The notes under the pieces are model-generated. The model saw nothing but the letters and a program-made list of their open reading frames with translations, was not told the origin of the DNA and searched no databases. Both the position numbers and the translations under genes were made by a program. Positions 5,560 through 29,602 of a stretch of DNA of 64,000 nt are shown here, piece by piece. Origin of the DNA: an uncultured Methanosarcinales archaeon (GTDB taxonomy: Archaea > Nanobdellota > Nanobdellia > Woesearchaeales > 21-14-0-10-32-9); assembly GCA_964501945.1 (NCBI GenBank), contig CAZCTY010000002.1, forward strand, positions 2,541 to 66,540. Direction: 5' to 3'. Each line of letters starts with the position of its first letter. The first letter of the stretch is position 1.

Positions 5560-5593
5560 ATTAATATATAAATATTATGATTTGAAAAATAAG

Positions 5594-16023: not shown

Positions 16024-16336
16024 TTATTACACCCCTATAAAAAACAGACTCGCCTGCTGTAGCACTATTTCTAGTGATTTTTATCACGTCATTTTCTTTA
16101 ACATCCAAATGACGAATAGCAGGATCTTTTTTAAGAATCTTAGGCAATTCTTTTATTGTTATGTTATGATATTCAAAAAGCTCTTTTATTTCTTTTTCAG
16201 ATAGCTTCTCATGAATAGGCACAAAGGAATGAACTATTTTAGATGTGTCCTTCGGCGCTTTTTGTTTAGCTGAAGATTTTTTTGCTACCTTAACAGCTTT
16301 TTTAGAAGTAGTTTTTTTAACTTTTTTATCGGCCAT
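16016..16336 (-). CDS. rpoH: RNA polymerase subunit H (Rpb5 homologue) with a Lys/Ala-rich N-terminal tail
   Basis: The core is HSFVPIHEKLSEKEIKELFEYHNITIKELPKILKKDPAIRHL..VIKITRNSATAGESVFYRGVI. It is preceded by MADKKVKKTTSKKAVKVAKKSSAKQKAPKDTSK. Confidence 0.85.
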   Translation of the reverse strand: MADKKVKKTTSKKAVKVAKKSSAKQKAPKDTSKIVHSFVPIHEKLSEKEIKELFEYHNITIKELPKILKKDPAIRHLDVKENDVIKITRNSATAGESVFYRGVINE

Positions 16337-16719: not shown

Positions 16720-16839
16720 TCCCTCGGGGGAGATTTGAACTCCCAACCTTTCGGTTTCAGCTGACCATAAATCATCCAACCCGTTTGGGCAGTCAAATGG
16801 TTTCTACAGCCGAACGCTCTACCGTTGAGCTACCGAGGG
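16720..16839 (-). tRNA. tRNA-Tyr (anticodon GTA) interrupted by an intron of about 48 nt at the canonical 37/38 position
   Basis: The reverse complement reads CCCTCGG TA GCTC AACGGTA GAGC G TTCGG CTGTAG [48 nt] A CCGAA AGGTT GGGAG TTCAAAT CTCCC CCGAGGG A. It has the C1:G72 pair typical of archaeal/eukaryal tRNA-Tyr. Confidence 0.85.
16756..16803 (-). other. tRNA-Tyr intron (boundaries ambiguous by 1-3 nt because of flanking A residues)
   Basis: Insert AAACCATTTGACTGCCCAAACGGGTTGGATGATTTATGGTCAGCTGAA lies between anticodon-loop G37 and A38. ACCAT/ATGGT and exon GCTG/intron CAGC complementarities flank the junctions. Confidence 0.7.
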
Positions 16840-16861
16840 CTAGAGAGCAGAGACGCATATT

Positions 16862-22707: not shown

Positions 22708-24882
22708 TTAAGATGCATATTTTTTAACAATGCTTAAGATATCTTCTCCGTACTTAGAAACTTTTTGCTCGCCAAGACCCTTAATACTTAAAAGCTCACT
22801 ATTAGATAAAGGAACAAACTCAGATATTGCATAAATTGCAGAATCATGAATAATAGTAAATGGAGGCAGAGAATTTTTTTTAGCCAAATCCCGACGCCAA
22901 TTTTTTAATTCTTCAATTAATAATAATTTTGATTTAGAATCTATACGCGACTCATCAACCGTTTTATTTTCGCTATCAACCAATAAATCTTTTTTACCAT
23001 TACTTGAAAACATAAATGAAGCGCTACGCTTTTTAACATAGCCTTTCTCAGCGAGCCGCCTCATATCAGCAGAAATAAAATAAGTAGGATTCCTGCCAGA
23101 ATAAGTCATGACTAATTTATCCATCGCGCGACTAACAGCGACATAAAACAAGCGACGCTCCTCCTCTTCTTTATCATAATCTTGAATCTTTATCAATTCA
23201 GTTACAGGATGCTCGCTAGTCTTGCATGGAAAATTCATAGAATTACAACCAGTAACAAAAACAAGCTTTGCCTCAAGGCCTTTAATCGCGTGAACAGTTG
23301 CAAGAGTAACCTCGCCACGCTTTGCCTCAACTTTTTTAATCCTATCCTCAGTTTTAACAACGTGAGGAATATCGTTTTGCTTGAGTAAATTAGAAAATTC
23401 GTTTAACGCTTTATTAGTCCTTGCAAGAACAAATATATCATCCCTTAAAACATCAGTTCCAAGAATTGATTGAAGAACAAATAAACGCTCCTCTTGCTCA
23501 GATTTAAATTTTAAAAGTTTTAAAAAACCCTCATCTTGATTTACAGGCTCCAAATCAGGCATGTTAAGCTTTTTTATAGCCAAATTCATAAAGTCAACAA
23601 TTAATTTTTTAGAACGATAATTCTTAGTTAAAAAAATAACCTCACAACTAGGATGTTGCTGCTCAAATTCCATTATAAATTTTATATCAGAACCTCTCCA
23701 ACCAAAAATAGATTGACGAGGATCACCAACACAAAACAAGTTTTTAACATCTAAAACATTAACTAAATCAATCTGAGAAGAATTAACATCTTGATATTCA
23801 TCAATTAGAATATGATCAAATTCAGGAACCATAGAAGGATTATTTTTGAAAAATTTTAAAGCATCAAGCAATTGATCAGAAAAATCACGAAGACCACGCT
23901 CTTGCATGTATTCTTCAAGCGCCAAGCAAGTCTTATAAACAAGCCTCGCCCCACGCATAAAACTAGGACTCGCATCCTTAGTAAAATCTTCAAGACCACC
24001 TTGAGCCTTGAATGTATCAAGAACTAAAAAACAATCATTCATAAAAATAGCTGCGAGTTGCTCATCAGTTTTACCACGCCTCTGAGAGTGAGAAAAATAA
24101 GTATCAATAGCATCCCTCAAATCCAAACCTTGCTCTTCAAGCGCCCTTTTAATACCAATTATTTTATCCTTATAACGCATAACTCTAACAGGGCGATCAT
24201 AAATTTCATCATTGTGAATACGCAAAGTCTTCTCACAAAAAGAATTAAAAGTCTCAACGCGAGCATTAAAAATACCTGCTTGCTCTAAACGATTAATCAT
24301 TTCCTTTCTAGCCTTACGAGTAAAAGTAATAGCCAATATCTTAGACGGATTTACACCTTTATACCTAATTAAAAACTCCGCCCTCTTAGTTAAAACACGC
24401 GTCTTACCAGAACCCGCGCCAGCAACACATACAACTTTATTTGCAGGAGTTACAACAGCTTTTTTTTGCTCATCATTCAACCCAGTTAAAAAGAAATCAA
24501 AATTTTTAAAAAGCTCTTTTTCATCAAGAGAAATACTCGTTTCCTGATTGAATTTGAACCCAAGCTTACGCTTAAAAAAAGAAGGTTTTTTTAATTCATC
24601 AAAACCTTTCCTTGAAAGTCTTAAAACCTTCGCATATTTATTTATAGTGCTAAAAGATTCTTGCTCAATAAAACCATTCCTAATTAAAGAATCAATAACC
24701 GCGTTAAGCTCGTCTTTAGAGTATGCAAGCTCGCCAAAACAATTAAGTTCGTGAAGCTTATTACGCTCAATTGAAGGATTGTTAATATCACCTAATAACA
24801 TATCTGATAAAAGATTTTTACCAACATTGAAAGGAACTTCTGTTAAAGCTTTTAAAACAACCAAATAATCTTTCTCATCCAT
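22708..24882 (-). CDS. UvrD/PcrA/Rep-type SF1 helicase with an N-terminal RQC-like winged helix and a C-terminal HRDC domain
   Basis: Walker A VAGAGSGKTRVL, ILIDEYQDVN, VGDPRQSIFGWRG and TVHAIKGLE. The N-terminus LKALTEVPFNVGKNLLSDMLLGD...FGELAYSKDELNAVIDSLIRNGFIE is RQC-like. The C-terminus LKNWRRDLAKKNSLPPFTIIHDSAIYAISEFVPLSNSELLSIKGLGEQKVSKYGEDIL is HRDC-like. Confidence 0.85.
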   Translation of the reverse strand: MDEKDYLVVLKALTEVPFNVGKNLLSDMLLGDINNPSIERNKLHELNCFGELAYSKDELNAVIDSLIRNGFIEQESFSTINKYAKVLRLSRKGFDELKKPSFFKRKLGFKFNQETSISLDEKELFKNFDFFLTGLNDEQKKAVVTPANKVVCVAGAGSGKTRVLTKRAEFLIRYKGVNPSKILAITFTRKARKEMINRLEQAGIFNARVETFNSFCEKTLRIHNDEIYDRPVRVMRYKDKIIGIKRALEEQGLDLRDAIDTYFSHSQRRGKTDEQLAAIFMNDCFLVLDTFKAQGGLEDFTKDASPSFMRGARLVYKTCLALEEYMQERGLRDFSDQLLDALKFFKNNPSMVPEFDHILIDEYQDVNSSQIDLVNVLDVKNLFCVGDPRQSIFGWRGSDIKFIMEFEQQHPSCEVIFLTKNYRSKKLIVDFMNLAIKKLNMPDLEPVNQDEGFLKLLKFKSEQEERLFVLQSILGTDVLRDDIFVLARTNKALNEFSNLLKQNDIPHVVKTEDRIKKVEAKRGEVTLATVHAIKGLEAKLVFVTGCNSMNFPCKTSEHPVTELIKIQDYDKEEEERRLFYVAVSRAMDKLVMTYSGRNPTYFISADMRRLAEKGYVKKRSASFMFSSNGKKDLLVDSENKTVDESRIDSKSKLLLIEELKNWRRDLAKKNSLPPFTIIHDSAIYAISEFVPLSNSELLSIKGLGEQKVSKYGEDILSIVKKYAS

Positions 24883-25044: not shown

Positions 25045-28000
25045 TTAAGAGCACCCAGTAGTATTACCACAATCCTCACAGACAGCGCAACTACCACTTC
25101 TCTTTAATTTCATCGAGCCACAACTAGTACACTGCTCGCCTGTATACCCTTTAGATTTAGCTTCATAAACATCAGCCTCTTTACCAGATATACGAAGCTG
25201 TTTTTCTTTAGGCCCTTCTTTTTCAGGCTCTTCCTTAGTATCAGATGCTTCCATTGTTTTTACATGAACAAAGTCCTTACGCCCAAGGTACTCATACCCA
25301 AGAGTCCTAAATACATAGTCAAGAATCGAAGTGGCATTTTTAATTACAGGATGCCCAATAACCATACCTGCGGGCTCAAACCTTGTAAATGTGAATGAGT
25401 CCACAAATTCTTCTAAAGGCACACCATATTGCAAGCCCTTAGATATAGCCACAGCGAAACAATTCAACAAAGCACCATAAGAGGCACCTTCTTTGTATGT
25501 GTCAAGGAAAATCTCCCCCAACGAACCATCCTCATACTCGCCAGTTCTAAGGAAAACCTTTTGACCGCCAACATTTGCCTCTTGAACAAAACCCTTACGC
25601 TTTGCAGGCATCTTCTTTTGGCTCATCTTATAGACAACTTTTTCATGGATTTTTTTAGCATCCACAGATTCATCAACGTCATCAACTTGCTTTAACATTA
25701 AAAGCTCAGCATCTTCTTGAGAAGTAGAACTCAAAGGCTGACTAAGCTTACAACCATCCCTATACAAAGCGACAGCTTTAACCATTAACTTCCATGCATC
25801 TTTATGAGCTTTAGCAACATCACTAATGCTCGCAGTTTTATCCATGTTAATAGTTTTACTAATAGCTCCTGAGATATAAGGTTGAACTGCAGCCATCATC
25901 TGAATGTGCCCAGAGTAATCAATTAAACGAGTACCAAGCTTGCCACATTTATTAGCACAATCAAAAACAAATACGTGCTCTTCTTTTAAGCCAGGCGCTC
26001 CCTCAACAGTCATAGTACCACAAACATATTCCTCAGCTTTTTCAATATCCCTTTTAGAAAAACCAAGCGCCTCTAAAACATTAAGATCAGGCTTTCCTAT
26101 TTGCTCCTCAGTAAAACCTAGCTCTTTTAAAACATCATCACCAAGAGTCCACTTAGTAAATGCATATTTTAATTCAAACACAGTTTTTAACTGAGACTCA
26201 ACTTTTTGAATAGCAACATCAGTAAAACCTTTTTCTTTTAAATCCTCATGATTAATACCAGGTGCGTCTTTTAAAGTACCCGCGCCAACACAGTATTTGA
26301 CAATCTTATCAATTTCCTCATTAGAATAACCTAAAACTTCTAAAGCACTAGGAACAGACTGATTTACAATCTTAAAGTAACCGCCACCAGCGAGCTTTTT
26401 GAATTTGACTAAAGCAAAATCAGGCTCAACACCAGTAGTATCACAATCCATAACTAAACCAATAGTACCAGTCGGAGCAATAACAGTTACTTGAGCATTC
26501 CTAAAACCATACTCCTCACCCCAAGATAAAGCATCATCCCACGCAGAACGAGCATGACGCACCATGTACTCAGGACAATTATCAACACCCAAACCAACAG
26601 GCTTAATCGTCAAACCCTCATACTCAGACGGCTTAGCATTATGAGCTGCGCGCCTATGATTCCTAATTACTTTAAGCATATCTTCTTTATTTTCATCAAA
26701 TCTCTCAAAAGGACCTTTAGCTCGAGCCAACTCAGCAGAAGTAGTATAACTTTGACCACCCATAATAGCAGTAATTGAAGCAGCAAAGCTCCTACCTTGA
26801 GGACTATCATACGGAAGACCCATCCTCATAAGTAAAGCGCCAATATTAGCATAACCTAAACCAAGCGTCCTATACAAATAACTGTTTTTAGCAATTTCTT
26901 TACTTGGAAATTGAGCCATTAAAACAGAAATTTCAAGAACCGTAGTCCAAAGACGAACACCATGCTTGAATTTATCAACATCAAACATTTTAGTGCCATT
27001 ATCAAAGAACTTAACTAAATTAAAACTAGCCAAATTACAAGCAGTATCATCTAAAAACATATACTCCGAGCAAGGATTACTAGCATTAATCCTACCATCA
27101 TTTGGACAAGTATGCCATTCATTAATTGTGTCATCAAATTGAACACCAGGATCCGCACTCATCCAAGATGAGTAATTAATTTTATCCCAAAGCTCAGATG
27201 CTTTTAGAGTTTTATGAACTTTACCGTCAGTCCTTCTAGTTAAGTGCCAATCTTCTTCTTTGTGAAGAGTTTCAAAGAACTTATTTGGAATCCTAACAGA
27301 GTTATTACTATTTTGACCTGCAACAGTTAGATAAGCTTCAGATTCATAATTAGAATCCATAACAACGAAATCAATTTCTTTTTTACCCTGCCTGACAAGC
27401 ATTAATGCTCGCTGAACATAGTTAATAGGAACTTCATCATCAAGAGCTTTTTTTACAGCTTTCCTCAACGCAATATTTTCTTTTAAGTTAACAGATTTTT
27501 TCTCATGAGCAATCCTCATTATGTTATTTAAGTGCTTGCTTGATGTAATGCTACCTTGAACAAGAGATGCAACTTTTTGCTCCTCCCTCATCTTCCACTC
27601 AATAAAATCTTCAATTTCAGGATGATCAAGATCTAAACAAACCATTTTAGCAGCGCGCCTAGTAGTACCACCAGATTTTATCGCGCCAGCCGCCCTATCA
27701 AAAACAGTTAGAAAAGACATCAACCCAGAAGATTTTCCACCACCAGATAAGTGCTCACCACGACCCCTAATAGATGAGAAATTAGTACCAGTACCCGAAC
27801 CATACTTAAATAAACGAACTTCTCTTGTAATCAAATCAAATAACCCACCTTCATTAACTAAATCATCCCTAATAGATTGAATGAAACAAGCATGAGGCTG
27901 AGGCCTACTATAAGCATCCTGAGATTGTTTTACCTCTCCTGAATCAGGCTCAACATAGTAATGACCTTGAGATTCACCTTTAATACCATATGCAGTAAAT

Positions 28001-28512
28001 AAACCAGTGTTAAACCACTGAGGACTATTAGGAGCACACATCTGATTTAAAATCATAAAAGCAAGTTCATCATAAAAAGTAGCAGCATCCTCCTCTGATT
28101 TAAAGTAGCCGTAACGAACACCCCAATCAGTCCAACAACCAGCTAATCTATGAGCGACTTGCTTAACGCTCCTCTCAGAACCAAATACTATATTACCTTC
28201 TTTATCAACAGCAACATCTCCATTTTCATCAAGCTGAGGAACACCTTTTTTTCTAAGATACTTTTGAGCAAGAATATCAGTTGCCATCTGACTCCAAGAA
28301 GACGGAACTTCAATTTTTTTTATTTCATAAACAACAGAACCATCACTGTTTCTAATAACAGAATCCCTATAAGTATATTCAAACATTTCATAAACAGACT
28401 TCCCTGGCTTTGTAAAAAGCCTTTTAACACTAAGCCCTTTTTCATAATATTTAGCATTTGTTATCTTATCTACAAACTCATCACCCAACACATCATATTT
28501 TTTCTCACTCAT
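25045..28512 (-). CDS. nrdJ: class II (adenosylcobalamin-dependent) ribonucleotide reductase
   Basis: 1155 aa. Motifs GSGTGTNFSSIRGRGEHLSGGGKSSGLMSF and NPCSEYMFLDDTACNLAS, plus a C-terminal Cys-rich tail CTSCGS..CAVCEDCGNTTGCS. Confidence 0.9.
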   Translation of the reverse strand: MSEKKYDVLGDEFVDKITNAKYYEKGLSVKRLFTKPGKSVYEMFEYTYRDSVIRNSDGSVVYEIKKIEVPSSWSQMATDILAQKYLRKKGVPQLDENGDVAVDKEGNIVFGSERSVKQVAHRLAGCWTDWGVRYGYFKSEEDAATFYDELAFMILNQMCAPNSPQWFNTGLFTAYGIKGESQGHYYVEPDSGEVKQSQDAYSRPQPHACFIQSIRDDLVNEGGLFDLITREVRLFKYGSGTGTNFSSIRGRGEHLSGGGKSSGLMSFLTVFDRAAGAIKSGGTTRRAAKMVCLDLDHPEIEDFIEWKMREEQKVASLVQGSITSSKHLNNIMRIAHEKKSVNLKENIALRKAVKKALDDEVPINYVQRALMLVRQGKKEIDFVVMDSNYESEAYLTVAGQNSNNSVRIPNKFFETLHKEEDWHLTRRTDGKVHKTLKASELWDKINYSSWMSADPGVQFDDTINEWHTCPNDGRINASNPCSEYMFLDDTACNLASFNLVKFFDNGTKMFDVDKFKHGVRLWTTVLEISVLMAQFPSKEIAKNSYLYRTLGLGYANIGALLMRMGLPYDSPQGRSFAASITAIMGGQSYTTSAELARAKGPFERFDENKEDMLKVIRNHRRAAHNAKPSEYEGLTIKPVGLGVDNCPEYMVRHARSAWDDALSWGEEYGFRNAQVTVIAPTGTIGLVMDCDTTGVEPDFALVKFKKLAGGGYFKIVNQSVPSALEVLGYSNEEIDKIVKYCVGAGTLKDAPGINHEDLKEKGFTDVAIQKVESQLKTVFELKYAFTKWTLGDDVLKELGFTEEQIGKPDLNVLEALGFSKRDIEKAEEYVCGTMTVEGAPGLKEEHVFVFDCANKCGKLGTRLIDYSGHIQMMAAVQPYISGAISKTINMDKTASISDVAKAHKDAWKLMVKAVALYRDGCKLSQPLSSTSQEDAELLMLKQVDDVDESVDAKKIHEKVVYKMSQKKMPAKRKGFVQEANVGGQKVFLRTGEYEDGSLGEIFLDTYKEGASYGALLNCFAVAISKGLQYGVPLEEFVDSFTFTRFEPAGMVIGHPVIKNATSILDYVFRTLGYEYLGRKDFVHVKTMEASDTKEEPEKEGPKEKQLRISGKEADVYEAKSKGYTGEQCTSCGSMKLKRSGSCAVCEDCGNTTGCS

Positions 28513-28527
28513 TCTTTATACACCCTC

Positions 28528-28980
28528 TCATTGTTTAGTTTCGAATTTTTCTAATTCTTTTTTAAAAGACTCTATGTCTTGAAAATCGTTATACACCGAA
28601 GCAAATCTTATATAAGATACCTGATCAAGTTTTTTTAATTGCCTCAAAATCATTTTACCAATGTTTTTAGTTTTTATCTCCCGCTCATCACTGCTACGCA
28701 TCTTAGCTTCCACTTTTGAGACAATTTTTTCAATATCTTCCTCAGATACAGGCCTTTTTTGACACGCGGTTTGAATTGATTTTATAACTTTTTGCCTATC
28801 AAAAATTTCGCGTGTACCATCCTTTTTTAAAATCCTTATGTTCACCATCTCAATTTGCTCATACGTGGTAAATCTTCGCTCACACTTTAAACACTGACGC
28901 CTCCTTCTTGTAATATCTTCTTCAGTCTCCCTTGTCTCAAGGACTTTAGTTTCTGGAAAGCTACAATAAGGACATTTCAA
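28528..28980 (-). CDS. nrdR: NrdR transcriptional repressor (Zn ribbon plus ATP-cone)
   Basis: (L/M)KCPYCSFPETKVLETRE..RRRRQCLKCERRFTTYE followed by an ATP-cone. I place the start at TTG 28978-28980, which has GGTGG 7 nt upstream. The track ORF extends to ATG 29025, which would add an implausible hydrophobic leader. The gene ends 15 nt upstream of nrdJ. Confidence 0.85.
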   Translation of the reverse strand: MKCPYCSFPETKVLETRETEEDITRRRRQCLKCERRFTTYEQIEMVNIRILKKDGTREIFDRQKVIKSIQTACQKRPVSEEDIEKIVSKVEAKMRSSDEREIKTKNIGKMILRQLKKLDQVSYIRFASVYNDFQDIESFKKELEKFETKQ

Positions 28981-29021
28981 TATAAGACCACCTCGAATCA
29001 CAAAAAATAAAAAAACAAAAT

Positions 29022-29037
29022 TCACTAAATACAGGTA
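29022..29037. promoter_or_regulatory. NrdR box (proximal, degenerate)
   Basis: TCACTAAATACAGGTA matches about 10 of 16 consensus positions. Its centre is 31 bp from the distal box, which is the spacing typical of tandem NrdR boxes. Confidence 0.45.
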
Positions 29038-29052
29038 AAAACAACTCTAAAA

Positions 29053-29068
29053 ACACTACCCCTAGTGT
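29053..29068. promoter_or_regulatory. NrdR box (distal)
   Basis: ACACTACCCCTAGTGT has perfect 6-nt palindromic arms. By my count it matches 12 of 16 positions of the published consensus acaCwAtATaTwGtgt. Confidence 0.65.
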
Positions 29069-29281
29069 TTTATCATGTTTCTTAGATTCTTTATAAATTT
29101 ATCTATTCTCATACATTATTTTTATTAAAATGTCATTTTTTCATACATATTAAATGATATGCTTTAAAGTGCTATTATTAAATTAAAAAGACGAAAAAAC
29201 AAACAAAATTAATAAAACATTTAAATACTAGTTTTAATTACTAGTAGCAGAAAACCAAAAAAATGAAGGTTTTCCTGTGGG

Positions 29282-29602
29282 GTGAACGCAGTGGATGAAA
29301 ACATAGAATTAGGGGGGAAGATATTCCTTTCAGGTTTTAAGAACCTTAGAAGAGACGAATTAATAATAGCAAAGAAGCTAATAGGAAGCTATGCAAGAAA
29401 GTTTAGTGACGGATTAGAAAACTACGAGTCTTTAAATCTGCATTTAAAACCAATTCATAACCCAGACTCAGATAAATACGAACTACACGCAAAACTAATG
29501 TATGGTGGCAAGATGGCAAATAGCGAAGTAACAGACCACAACATATTCATATGCGTGGATTCAGCACTTAAAAAAATAGAAGAACAAGCATTAAAACAAT
29601 AA
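29282..29602 (+). CDS. HPF/RaiA/YfiA-like (ribosomal S30Ae family) protein, GTG start
   Basis: 106 aa. HAKLMYGGKMANSEVTDHNIFICVDSALKKIEEQ aligns by eye with E. coli HPF DATLHVNGGEIHASAEGQDMYAAIDGLIDKLARQ. Overall length and beta-alpha-beta3-alpha layout fit. Confidence 0.5.
   Translation: MNAVDENIELGGKIFLSGFKNLRRDELIIAKKLIGSYARKFSDGLENYESLNLHLKPIHNPDSDKYELHAKLMYGGKMANSEVTDHNIFICVDSALKKIEEQALKQ

Follow-up and report, generated by a model that had tools for sequence, protein, structure and literature searches.

A predicted NrdR operator downstream of the TATA box of a Woesearchaeota-type nrdR-nrdJ operon

Introduction

Among the closest described systems to the locus reported here is the nrdRJ operon of S. 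coelicolor, in which nrdR is co-transcribed with nrdJ, the gene of a class II ribonucleotide reductase (RNR), and represses its own operon from two 16-bp boxes upstream of nrdR, which have a 15-bp linker between them and overlap the core promoter (PMC9110341; PDB 7p37/7p3f). The gene pair, the two boxes, their linker and their overlap with the core promoter all recur at our locus, where self-repression is predicted. The two systems differ in that the promoter described here is of the archaeal TATA/BRE type and not of the sigma-70 type, the centre of box 1 is GGGG, the residue corresponding to D15 of the regulator is E15, and there is no second RNR operon. The best structural relative of the encoded protein is NrdR of E. 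coli, which is known from several structures (PDB 9fzf, 9fvr, 9fxk, 9gex) and from the nrdAB, nrdHIEF and nrdDG operators; there, unlike here, nrdR is unlinked to an RNR gene and the promoters are bacterial.

The DNA-contacting residues of NrdR, in S. coelicolor numbering, are the RRRR motif, R17 and D15 (PMC9110341). On the operator side, the critical bases are C4, A6, T11 and G13, and the exchange A6G in both boxes weakens binding 4-10-fold (PMC13584703). The central A8-T9 step is highly conserved yet dispensable in vitro: with A8C,T9G in both boxes the KD is 65-82 nM, and the affinity of both S. coelicolor and E. coli NrdR stays nanomolar (PMC13584703). Linkers of 15-16 bp form the predominant bacterial class (PMC13584703). 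Among archaeal genomes, 22% encode NrdR (PMC13584703), and nrdR-nrdAB operons have been described in haloarchaea, without an operator analysis (PMC3019208). The latter resemble our locus in that an archaeal nrdR adjoins an RNR operon, but they encode class I enzymes and are recent, patchy transfers from bacteria (PMC3019208), whereas the enzyme here is of class II and NrdR occurs in most of the phylum. A survey of NrdR boxes was confined to bacterial genomes (PMC12051234). In the literature searched we found no paper combining NrdR with DPANN archaea and none relating NrdR boxes to a TATA box.

Archaeal promoters that are served by TBP and TFB carry their TATA box about 26-27 bp upstream of the transcription start. 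The archaeal repressors MDR1, LrpA and Phr bind at the start and block the recruitment of RNA polymerase, from an operator placed over the start, directly downstream of the TATA box, the position predicted here for the NrdR boxes. To our knowledge these repressors belong to protein families unrelated to NrdR, and none of them senses nucleotides through an ATP-cone.

In this report we describe an element upstream of an archaeal nrdR-nrdJ gene pair that is best read as the operator of a self-repressing operon, a reading to which we assign a probability of roughly 0.85 on comparative grounds.

Results

The nrdR-nrdJ locus

The locus lies within a window of 64 kb (the whole stretch of DNA analysed, 64,000 nucleotides) from an assembly of 1.02 Mb with 34% G+C and an estimated 97% completeness. 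A split RpoB, RpoA' and aIF2-type factors are encoded in the window, and because of these markers we take the genome to be archaeal, in agreement with the archaeal type of transcription that had been read from the sequence earlier; the host is a Woesearchaeota-type DPANN archaeon with a tiny genome. Reading along the minus strand, AGATAAA-TTTATAAA (29104..29090) is followed by a 21-nt spacer, box 1, a 15-nt linker, box 2, a T-rich leader, GAGGTGG (28994..28988), 7 nt and the TTG codon at 28980 (Table 1). A gap of 15 nt separates the nrdR stop (28528) from the nrdJ ATG (28512), so the coordinates agree with the earlier statements that nrdR stands 15 nt upstream of a class II RNR gene and that it is the first gene of an nrdR-nrdJ operon.

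Table 1. Features of the nrdR-nrdJ locus, in the order in which they are met on the minus strand (positions of the window)
Feature	Position	Strand	Basis or remark
BRE-like purine-rich stretch AGATAAA	29098..29104	-	abuts the TATA box on its upstream side; function inferred
TATA box TTTATAAA of the nrdRJ promoter	29090..29097	-	conserved in the family
Predicted transcription start, about 29067	29064..29070	-	first T of the TATA box + 30
NrdR box 1 ACACTAGGGGTAGTGT (predicted site)	29053..29068	-	conserved arms, matrix ranks
Linker between the boxes, 15 bp	29038..29052	-	non-conserved
NrdR box 2 TACCTGTATTTAGTGA (predicted site)	29022..29037	-	position and orthologous boxes
Shine-Dalgarno GAGGTGG	28988..28994	-	7 nt ahead of the TTG start
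nrdR, 150 aa	28528..28980	-	TIGR00244, PF22811, PF03477
nrdJ, 1155 aa, class II RNR	25045..28512	-	NF005736

The product of nrdR scored 179.1 bits against the NrdR equivalog model TIGR00244 (cut-off 124.65), covering model positions 1-146 of 147, and contained the NrdR zinc ribbon (PF22811, 59.7 bits) and an ATP-cone (PF03477, 79.3 bits; residues 49-135, profile positions 2-87 of 88). Together with a match to the E. coli NrdR structures, including 9fzf, at E=1e-40, the score above the TIGR00244 cut-off upholds the identification of the protein as NrdR. In an alignment of 27 orthologues the zinc-ribbon CxxC pairs (C3, C6, C30 and C33) are invariant, and R17, the RRRR motif (R25-R28) and the ATP-cone are retained. 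Where S. coelicolor NrdR has the base-contacting D15, the protein described here and those of all family members have E15, a residue that 6 of the 69 sampled bacterial NrdRs also have at this position.

M(K/R)CP opens each of the 27 aligned orthologues, as it does the protein read from the TTG at 28980 (MKCPYCS...), and for this reason we take that codon to be the real start. The sequence-only reading had favoured the same TTG, which has a Shine-Dalgarno sequence before it, on account of the overlap of the proximal box with the start of the annotated frame. It had named an ATG at 29025 as that start; the mechanical open reading frame does begin at 29025, but with GTG.

NrdJ, the class II (adenosylcobalamin-dependent) RNR, scored 1795 bits against NF005736 (cut-off 1737). 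Neither NrdD nor a second gene with PF02867 was found in the 97%-complete genome, which makes nrdJ the only RNR gene of this genome.

Several other features were observed in the window and elsewhere in the genome. About 130 nt before the nrdR TATA box, the same intergenic region also contains a palindrome, TACTAGT-N5-ACTAGTA at 29227-29245, which precedes a divergent 106-aa ORF (29282-29602) that has no Pfam match. Elsewhere in the window, positions 22708-24882 (minus strand) encode a UvrD/PcrA-type SF1 helicase with an N-terminal RQC domain and a C-terminal HRDC domain. On another contig of the genome (C35) the 16-mer ATCCTACTCGTAGTGG occurs at 2714, 5723 and 8732, a spacing of exactly 3009 bp, which points to tandem repetition of a unit of about 3 kb.

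Sequence and statistics of the two boxes

Box 1, which reads ACACTACCCCTAGTGT on the plus strand, has perfect 6-bp arms around a non-palindromic centre. It carries C4, A6, T11 and G13, with GGGG in place of ATAT in the middle, and its A+T fraction from C4 to G13 is 0.5, compared with 0.63-1.0 in the tabulated bacterial boxes (PMC13584703). Box 2 carries C4, A8, T9, T11 and G13, with G instead of A at position 6, and its central A8-T9 step is AT where that of box 1 is GG. The two starts are 31 bp apart, with the 15-bp linker between the boxes and both of them upstream of nrdRJ; the palindrome at 29053-29068 and the second box 31 bp away, as originally reported, are therefore both present in the sequence.

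The pattern ACACWA-N4-TWGTGT occurs a single time in the 1.02-Mb genome, at box 1; about 0.1-0.4 copies would be expected by chance genome-wide and about 3e-5 in this intergenic region. Matrix ranks were taken over 1,018,727 genome positions. With a matrix of 10 bacterial boxes validated by experiment (PMC13584703, Table 1), box 1 ranked 19th, box 2 6270th and the pair 11th, while a matrix of 36 boxes from other DPANN families placed box 1 at 122 and box 2 at 5593, with the pair absent among the matches listed. A leave-one-out matrix, made from the 11 remaining genomes of the family and excluding this one, ranked box 1 first, box 2 354th and the pair first in the genome, at 28.2 bits versus 19.3 for the runner-up. 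We regard the support from the generic NrdR matrices as moderate and as informative for box 1 only. Under them box 2 alone is indistinguishable from background, so that the matrix scan proposed with the sequence-only reading lifts one box above background and not the other. Given these poor ranks, box 2 rests on its position and its orthologues and not on its own score.

The other top-scoring single-box matches all fall within coding regions. Four of them were considered as extra regulon members (window position 16062 in rpoH, C13:10757, C6:19524 and C2:59835) and rejected as chance matches, being intragenic and having no partner box.

Conservation in the family

The footprint set consisted of the 12 family genomes with an assembled nrdR upstream region. 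In all 12, nrdJ follows nrdR (NrdJ identity 63-84%) and the same pattern recurs: TTTATA(A/T)A with its first T 24-29 nt ahead of box 1, then (A/G)C(A/G)CTA-N4-TAGTGT, a 15-16-nt linker and a second box, with box starts 31-32 bp apart in every member. Column conservation across the 12 genomes is 0.97 in the TATA box and 0.98 in the arms of box 1, as against 0.65 in the centre of box 1, 0.52 in the linker and about 0.5 in the spacer. We consider this conservation the decisive support for the predicted operator; as both boxes are conserved across the family, it also sustains the earlier proposal that they act as tandem operators.

Orthologous second boxes in the two closest genomes (AACCTATATGTAGTAA and AAACTATATTTAGTGA) are better than the one found here, and box 2 of this genome is a decayed copy of these better boxes in its two nearest relatives. 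Two family members (L024 and L028) have, at an unchanged offset, a box 2 core, ACTAAATACAGG, whose reverse complement is exactly the box 2 sequence CCTGTATTTAGT of this genome; the half-site that is degenerate lies on the promoter-proximal side in this genome and on the distal side in those two. This is probably a case of convergent decay of one half of the palindrome.

Three family genomes seemingly lack NrdR. Their nrdJ is cut by contig ends, from which we conclude that NrdR is missing through an assembly gap, and we rejected these genomes as a negative control since their nrdR is simply unassembled.

Promoter and predicted transcription start

TTTATAA is found at 29097..29091 of the minus strand as part of the 8-mer TTTATAAA (29097..29090), in keeping with the TATA-like element noted earlier at about 29091-29098, and its first T lies 29 nt ahead of box 1. 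Upstream of it, cAGATAA(A/C) is also found in the closest relatives. When the usual archaeal distance between TATA box and start is applied, transcription is predicted to begin on the second base of box 1, at about 29067, and the previous placement of the distal box over the start is consistent with this. The same distance fits an intron-bearing tRNA gene of the window, in which the first T of TTTATAAA lies 31 nt before the mature 5' end. More broadly, a perfect TTTAWAWA stands at most 45 nt upstream of 26 out of 32 archaeal box pairs, where about 2% would be expected by composition.

Whether repression would indeed work by covering the start is a separate matter from NrdR binding. NrdR bends DNA by about 90 degrees per box (PMC9110341), and bound NrdR might act through bends that hinder the assembly of TBP and TFB, or box 2 might serve as a roadblock to elongation. 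The spread of the TATA-to-box distance across the order is compatible with such mechanisms (17-36 nt, median about 26, in 30 archaeal promoters), as is one relative (L006) in which a TATA-like element is found within the linker between the boxes. Within the family, however, the distance is fixed at the 24-29 nt given above, a spacing at which the TATA box and BRE stay free while box 1 lies over the start, and we therefore think it unlikely that repression takes a route other than occlusion of the start.

Co-occurrence of boxes and regulator

Among 41 relatives, TIGR00244 was found in 28. Of 9 relatives that encode NrdR, 6-7 have box pairs of at least 22 bits (bacterial matrix) near RNR or nrdR genes; the RNR loci of 9 relatives without NrdR yielded no pair (0/9). 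The pairs sit in front of nrdR or RNR genes only, and they flank RNR genes solely in relatives that encode NrdR. This distribution bears on the idea that the palindrome is the site of another archaeal regulator and that its likeness to an NrdR box is coincidental, an idea that could draw on the non-canonical centre of box 1, on arms that are more rigidly conserved than the bacterial logo, and on the only moderate ranks under the generic matrices. Such a regulator would have to account for the presence of C4, A6, T11 and G13 together, for box starts 31-32 bp apart, and for boxes that co-occur with nrdR and sit before nrdR or RNR genes only; we hold it to be very improbable, and read the boxes as sites for NrdR.

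One of the relatives without NrdR has three tandem reductase genes (G037:C60:1000-6200) and no NrdR box pairs there.

A role of the palindrome in RNA, in which a hairpin at the 5' end of the nrdRJ leader would affect stability or attenuation, was rejected and is the least credible reading of all. In this genome box 1 has the potential for a stem of 6 bp closing a 4-nt loop, with UUUUU after it, but the folding of the 91-nt leader does not surpass that of shuffled sequences (z = +0.39), the arms retain their sequence and show almost no covariation, conservation does not extend to the U-run, and the predicted start falls inside the 5' arm. An Rfam scan of the 64-kb window matched tRNAs and no other RNA family, and we accordingly see no riboswitch in the window. 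One match, at 16720-16840 (minus strand), is a 120-nt tRNA gene, presumably intron-bearing, that was missed by ARAGORN; it is the gene with the TTTATAAA element mentioned above.

Distribution and origin of NrdR

Of 301 high-quality genomes of the phylum, 221 (73%) encode an NrdR that exceeds the cut-off. In a tree of the 150-aa NrdR the family proteins form one clade (support 95), and the DPANN proteins group loosely with those of Patescibacteria (loci L038, L063, L078 and L086); the backbone is weak (support 79-90), and the direction of inter-domain transfer is not settled by this tree. Bacterial NrdRs are 45-56% identical to the protein described here, and the NrdRs of other Woesearchaeota families are no closer. 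The sequence-only reading had suggested that regulator and operator were transferred into this genome. We find otherwise, because NrdR occurs in most of the phylum, the family forms a single clade and the bacterial identities are no lower; any inter-domain transfer of NrdR was ancient, into an ancestor. Its description of a bacterial-type NrdR in an archaeon is right in that the protein is a genuine NrdR, but the occurrence of NrdR in archaea had already been published (PMC13584703, PMC3019208).

Two further observations were made in the course of this comparison. A contig labelled Candidatus Saccharibacteria (L088, CAZNER010000084.1) encodes an NrdR that is sister (support 99) to a Woesearchaeota NrdR and has a TTTAAATA element 31 nt ahead of its boxes; the contig may be archaeal and placed in the wrong bin. 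A complete NrdR joined in frame to a class III reductase, NrdD, occurs in one genus of the order to which our genome belongs (L149:523-3036, G054:C11); the resulting protein of 837 aa has the zinc ribbon and ATP-cone plus a second ATP-cone, and the fusion also occurs in G120, G167, G171, G182 and G317. The promoter of the fusion gene at L149 consists of TTTATATA, 23 nt, ATACAATATTTAGTAT, a 25-nt linker and ACACAACATATTGTGT. Our literature search found no report of a natural NrdR-NrdD fusion.

Discussion

If this NrdR behaves as its S. coelicolor and E. coli counterparts do, a rise of dATP relative to ATP would convert it to a tetramer with two pairs of zinc ribbons, one for each of the two boxes, which are separated by three helical turns; the tetramer on both boxes would bend the DNA (PMC9110341, PMC13584703). 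From their positions, box 1 would lie over the predicted start, at about -1 to +15, and box 2 at about +31 to +46, and the TATA and BRE elements would stay accessible to TBP and TFB. Occupancy from about -1 to +46 would then block the recruitment of RNA polymerase or the opening of the promoter, although which step repression blocks on a TBP/TFB promoter is a guess on our part. Expression of nrdR and nrdJ would fall together, and the operon would therefore form a negative feedback loop on dNTP supply.

The Patescibacteria loci whose NrdRs group with DPANN NrdRs in the tree can be compared. Their box starts are likewise 31-32 bp apart, but there box 1 directly adjoins a -35 element, TTGAC, and takes up the space between -35 and -10, whereas in our family it follows the TATA box by 24-29 nt. 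The same operator module thus sits differently on two promoter types.

A G+C-containing centre has a counterpart in box 2 of the E. coli nrdAB operator, GTACTACAGGTAGTCT, which resembles the family's GCACTACAGGTAGTGT (PMC13584703 Table 1). A second family with an E15 NrdR (G032) carries the 16-mer ACACTAGGGGTAGTGT in identical form in an RNR promoter (L130, G032:C10; locus position about 631, in gene orientation), ahead of a reductase that is only 29% identical to the NrdJ described here. With two lineages, this is a hint that the residue at position 15 may be linked to the type of operator. We tentatively join three readings, a combination that seems to us rather doubtful as a whole: that Woesearchaeota-type NrdR is old, has been kept largely vertically and acts at the start of TBP/TFB promoters; that the E15 variant of this family reads a modified operator, with invariant ACACTA/TAGTGT arms and a free, G+C-tolerant centre, without reliance on the central A-T kink of the bacterial complexes; and that E15 goes together with this operator type.

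The predicted operator appears to be real and conserved, yet it is an expected member of the known NrdR system, and the practical value of describing it is modest, as the regulator, its boxes and its occurrence in some archaea were already published. What the comparative evidence adds is a nucleotide-sensing NrdR switch fitted onto an archaeal promoter, with the operator shifted from the bacterial -35/-10 spacer to the predicted transcription start downstream of the TATA box. This switch is the rule and not an oddity in one large archaeal phylum (73% of genomes), which brings a simple question within reach of work in vitro: whether a bacterial-type ATP-cone repressor can stop archaeal RNA polymerase.
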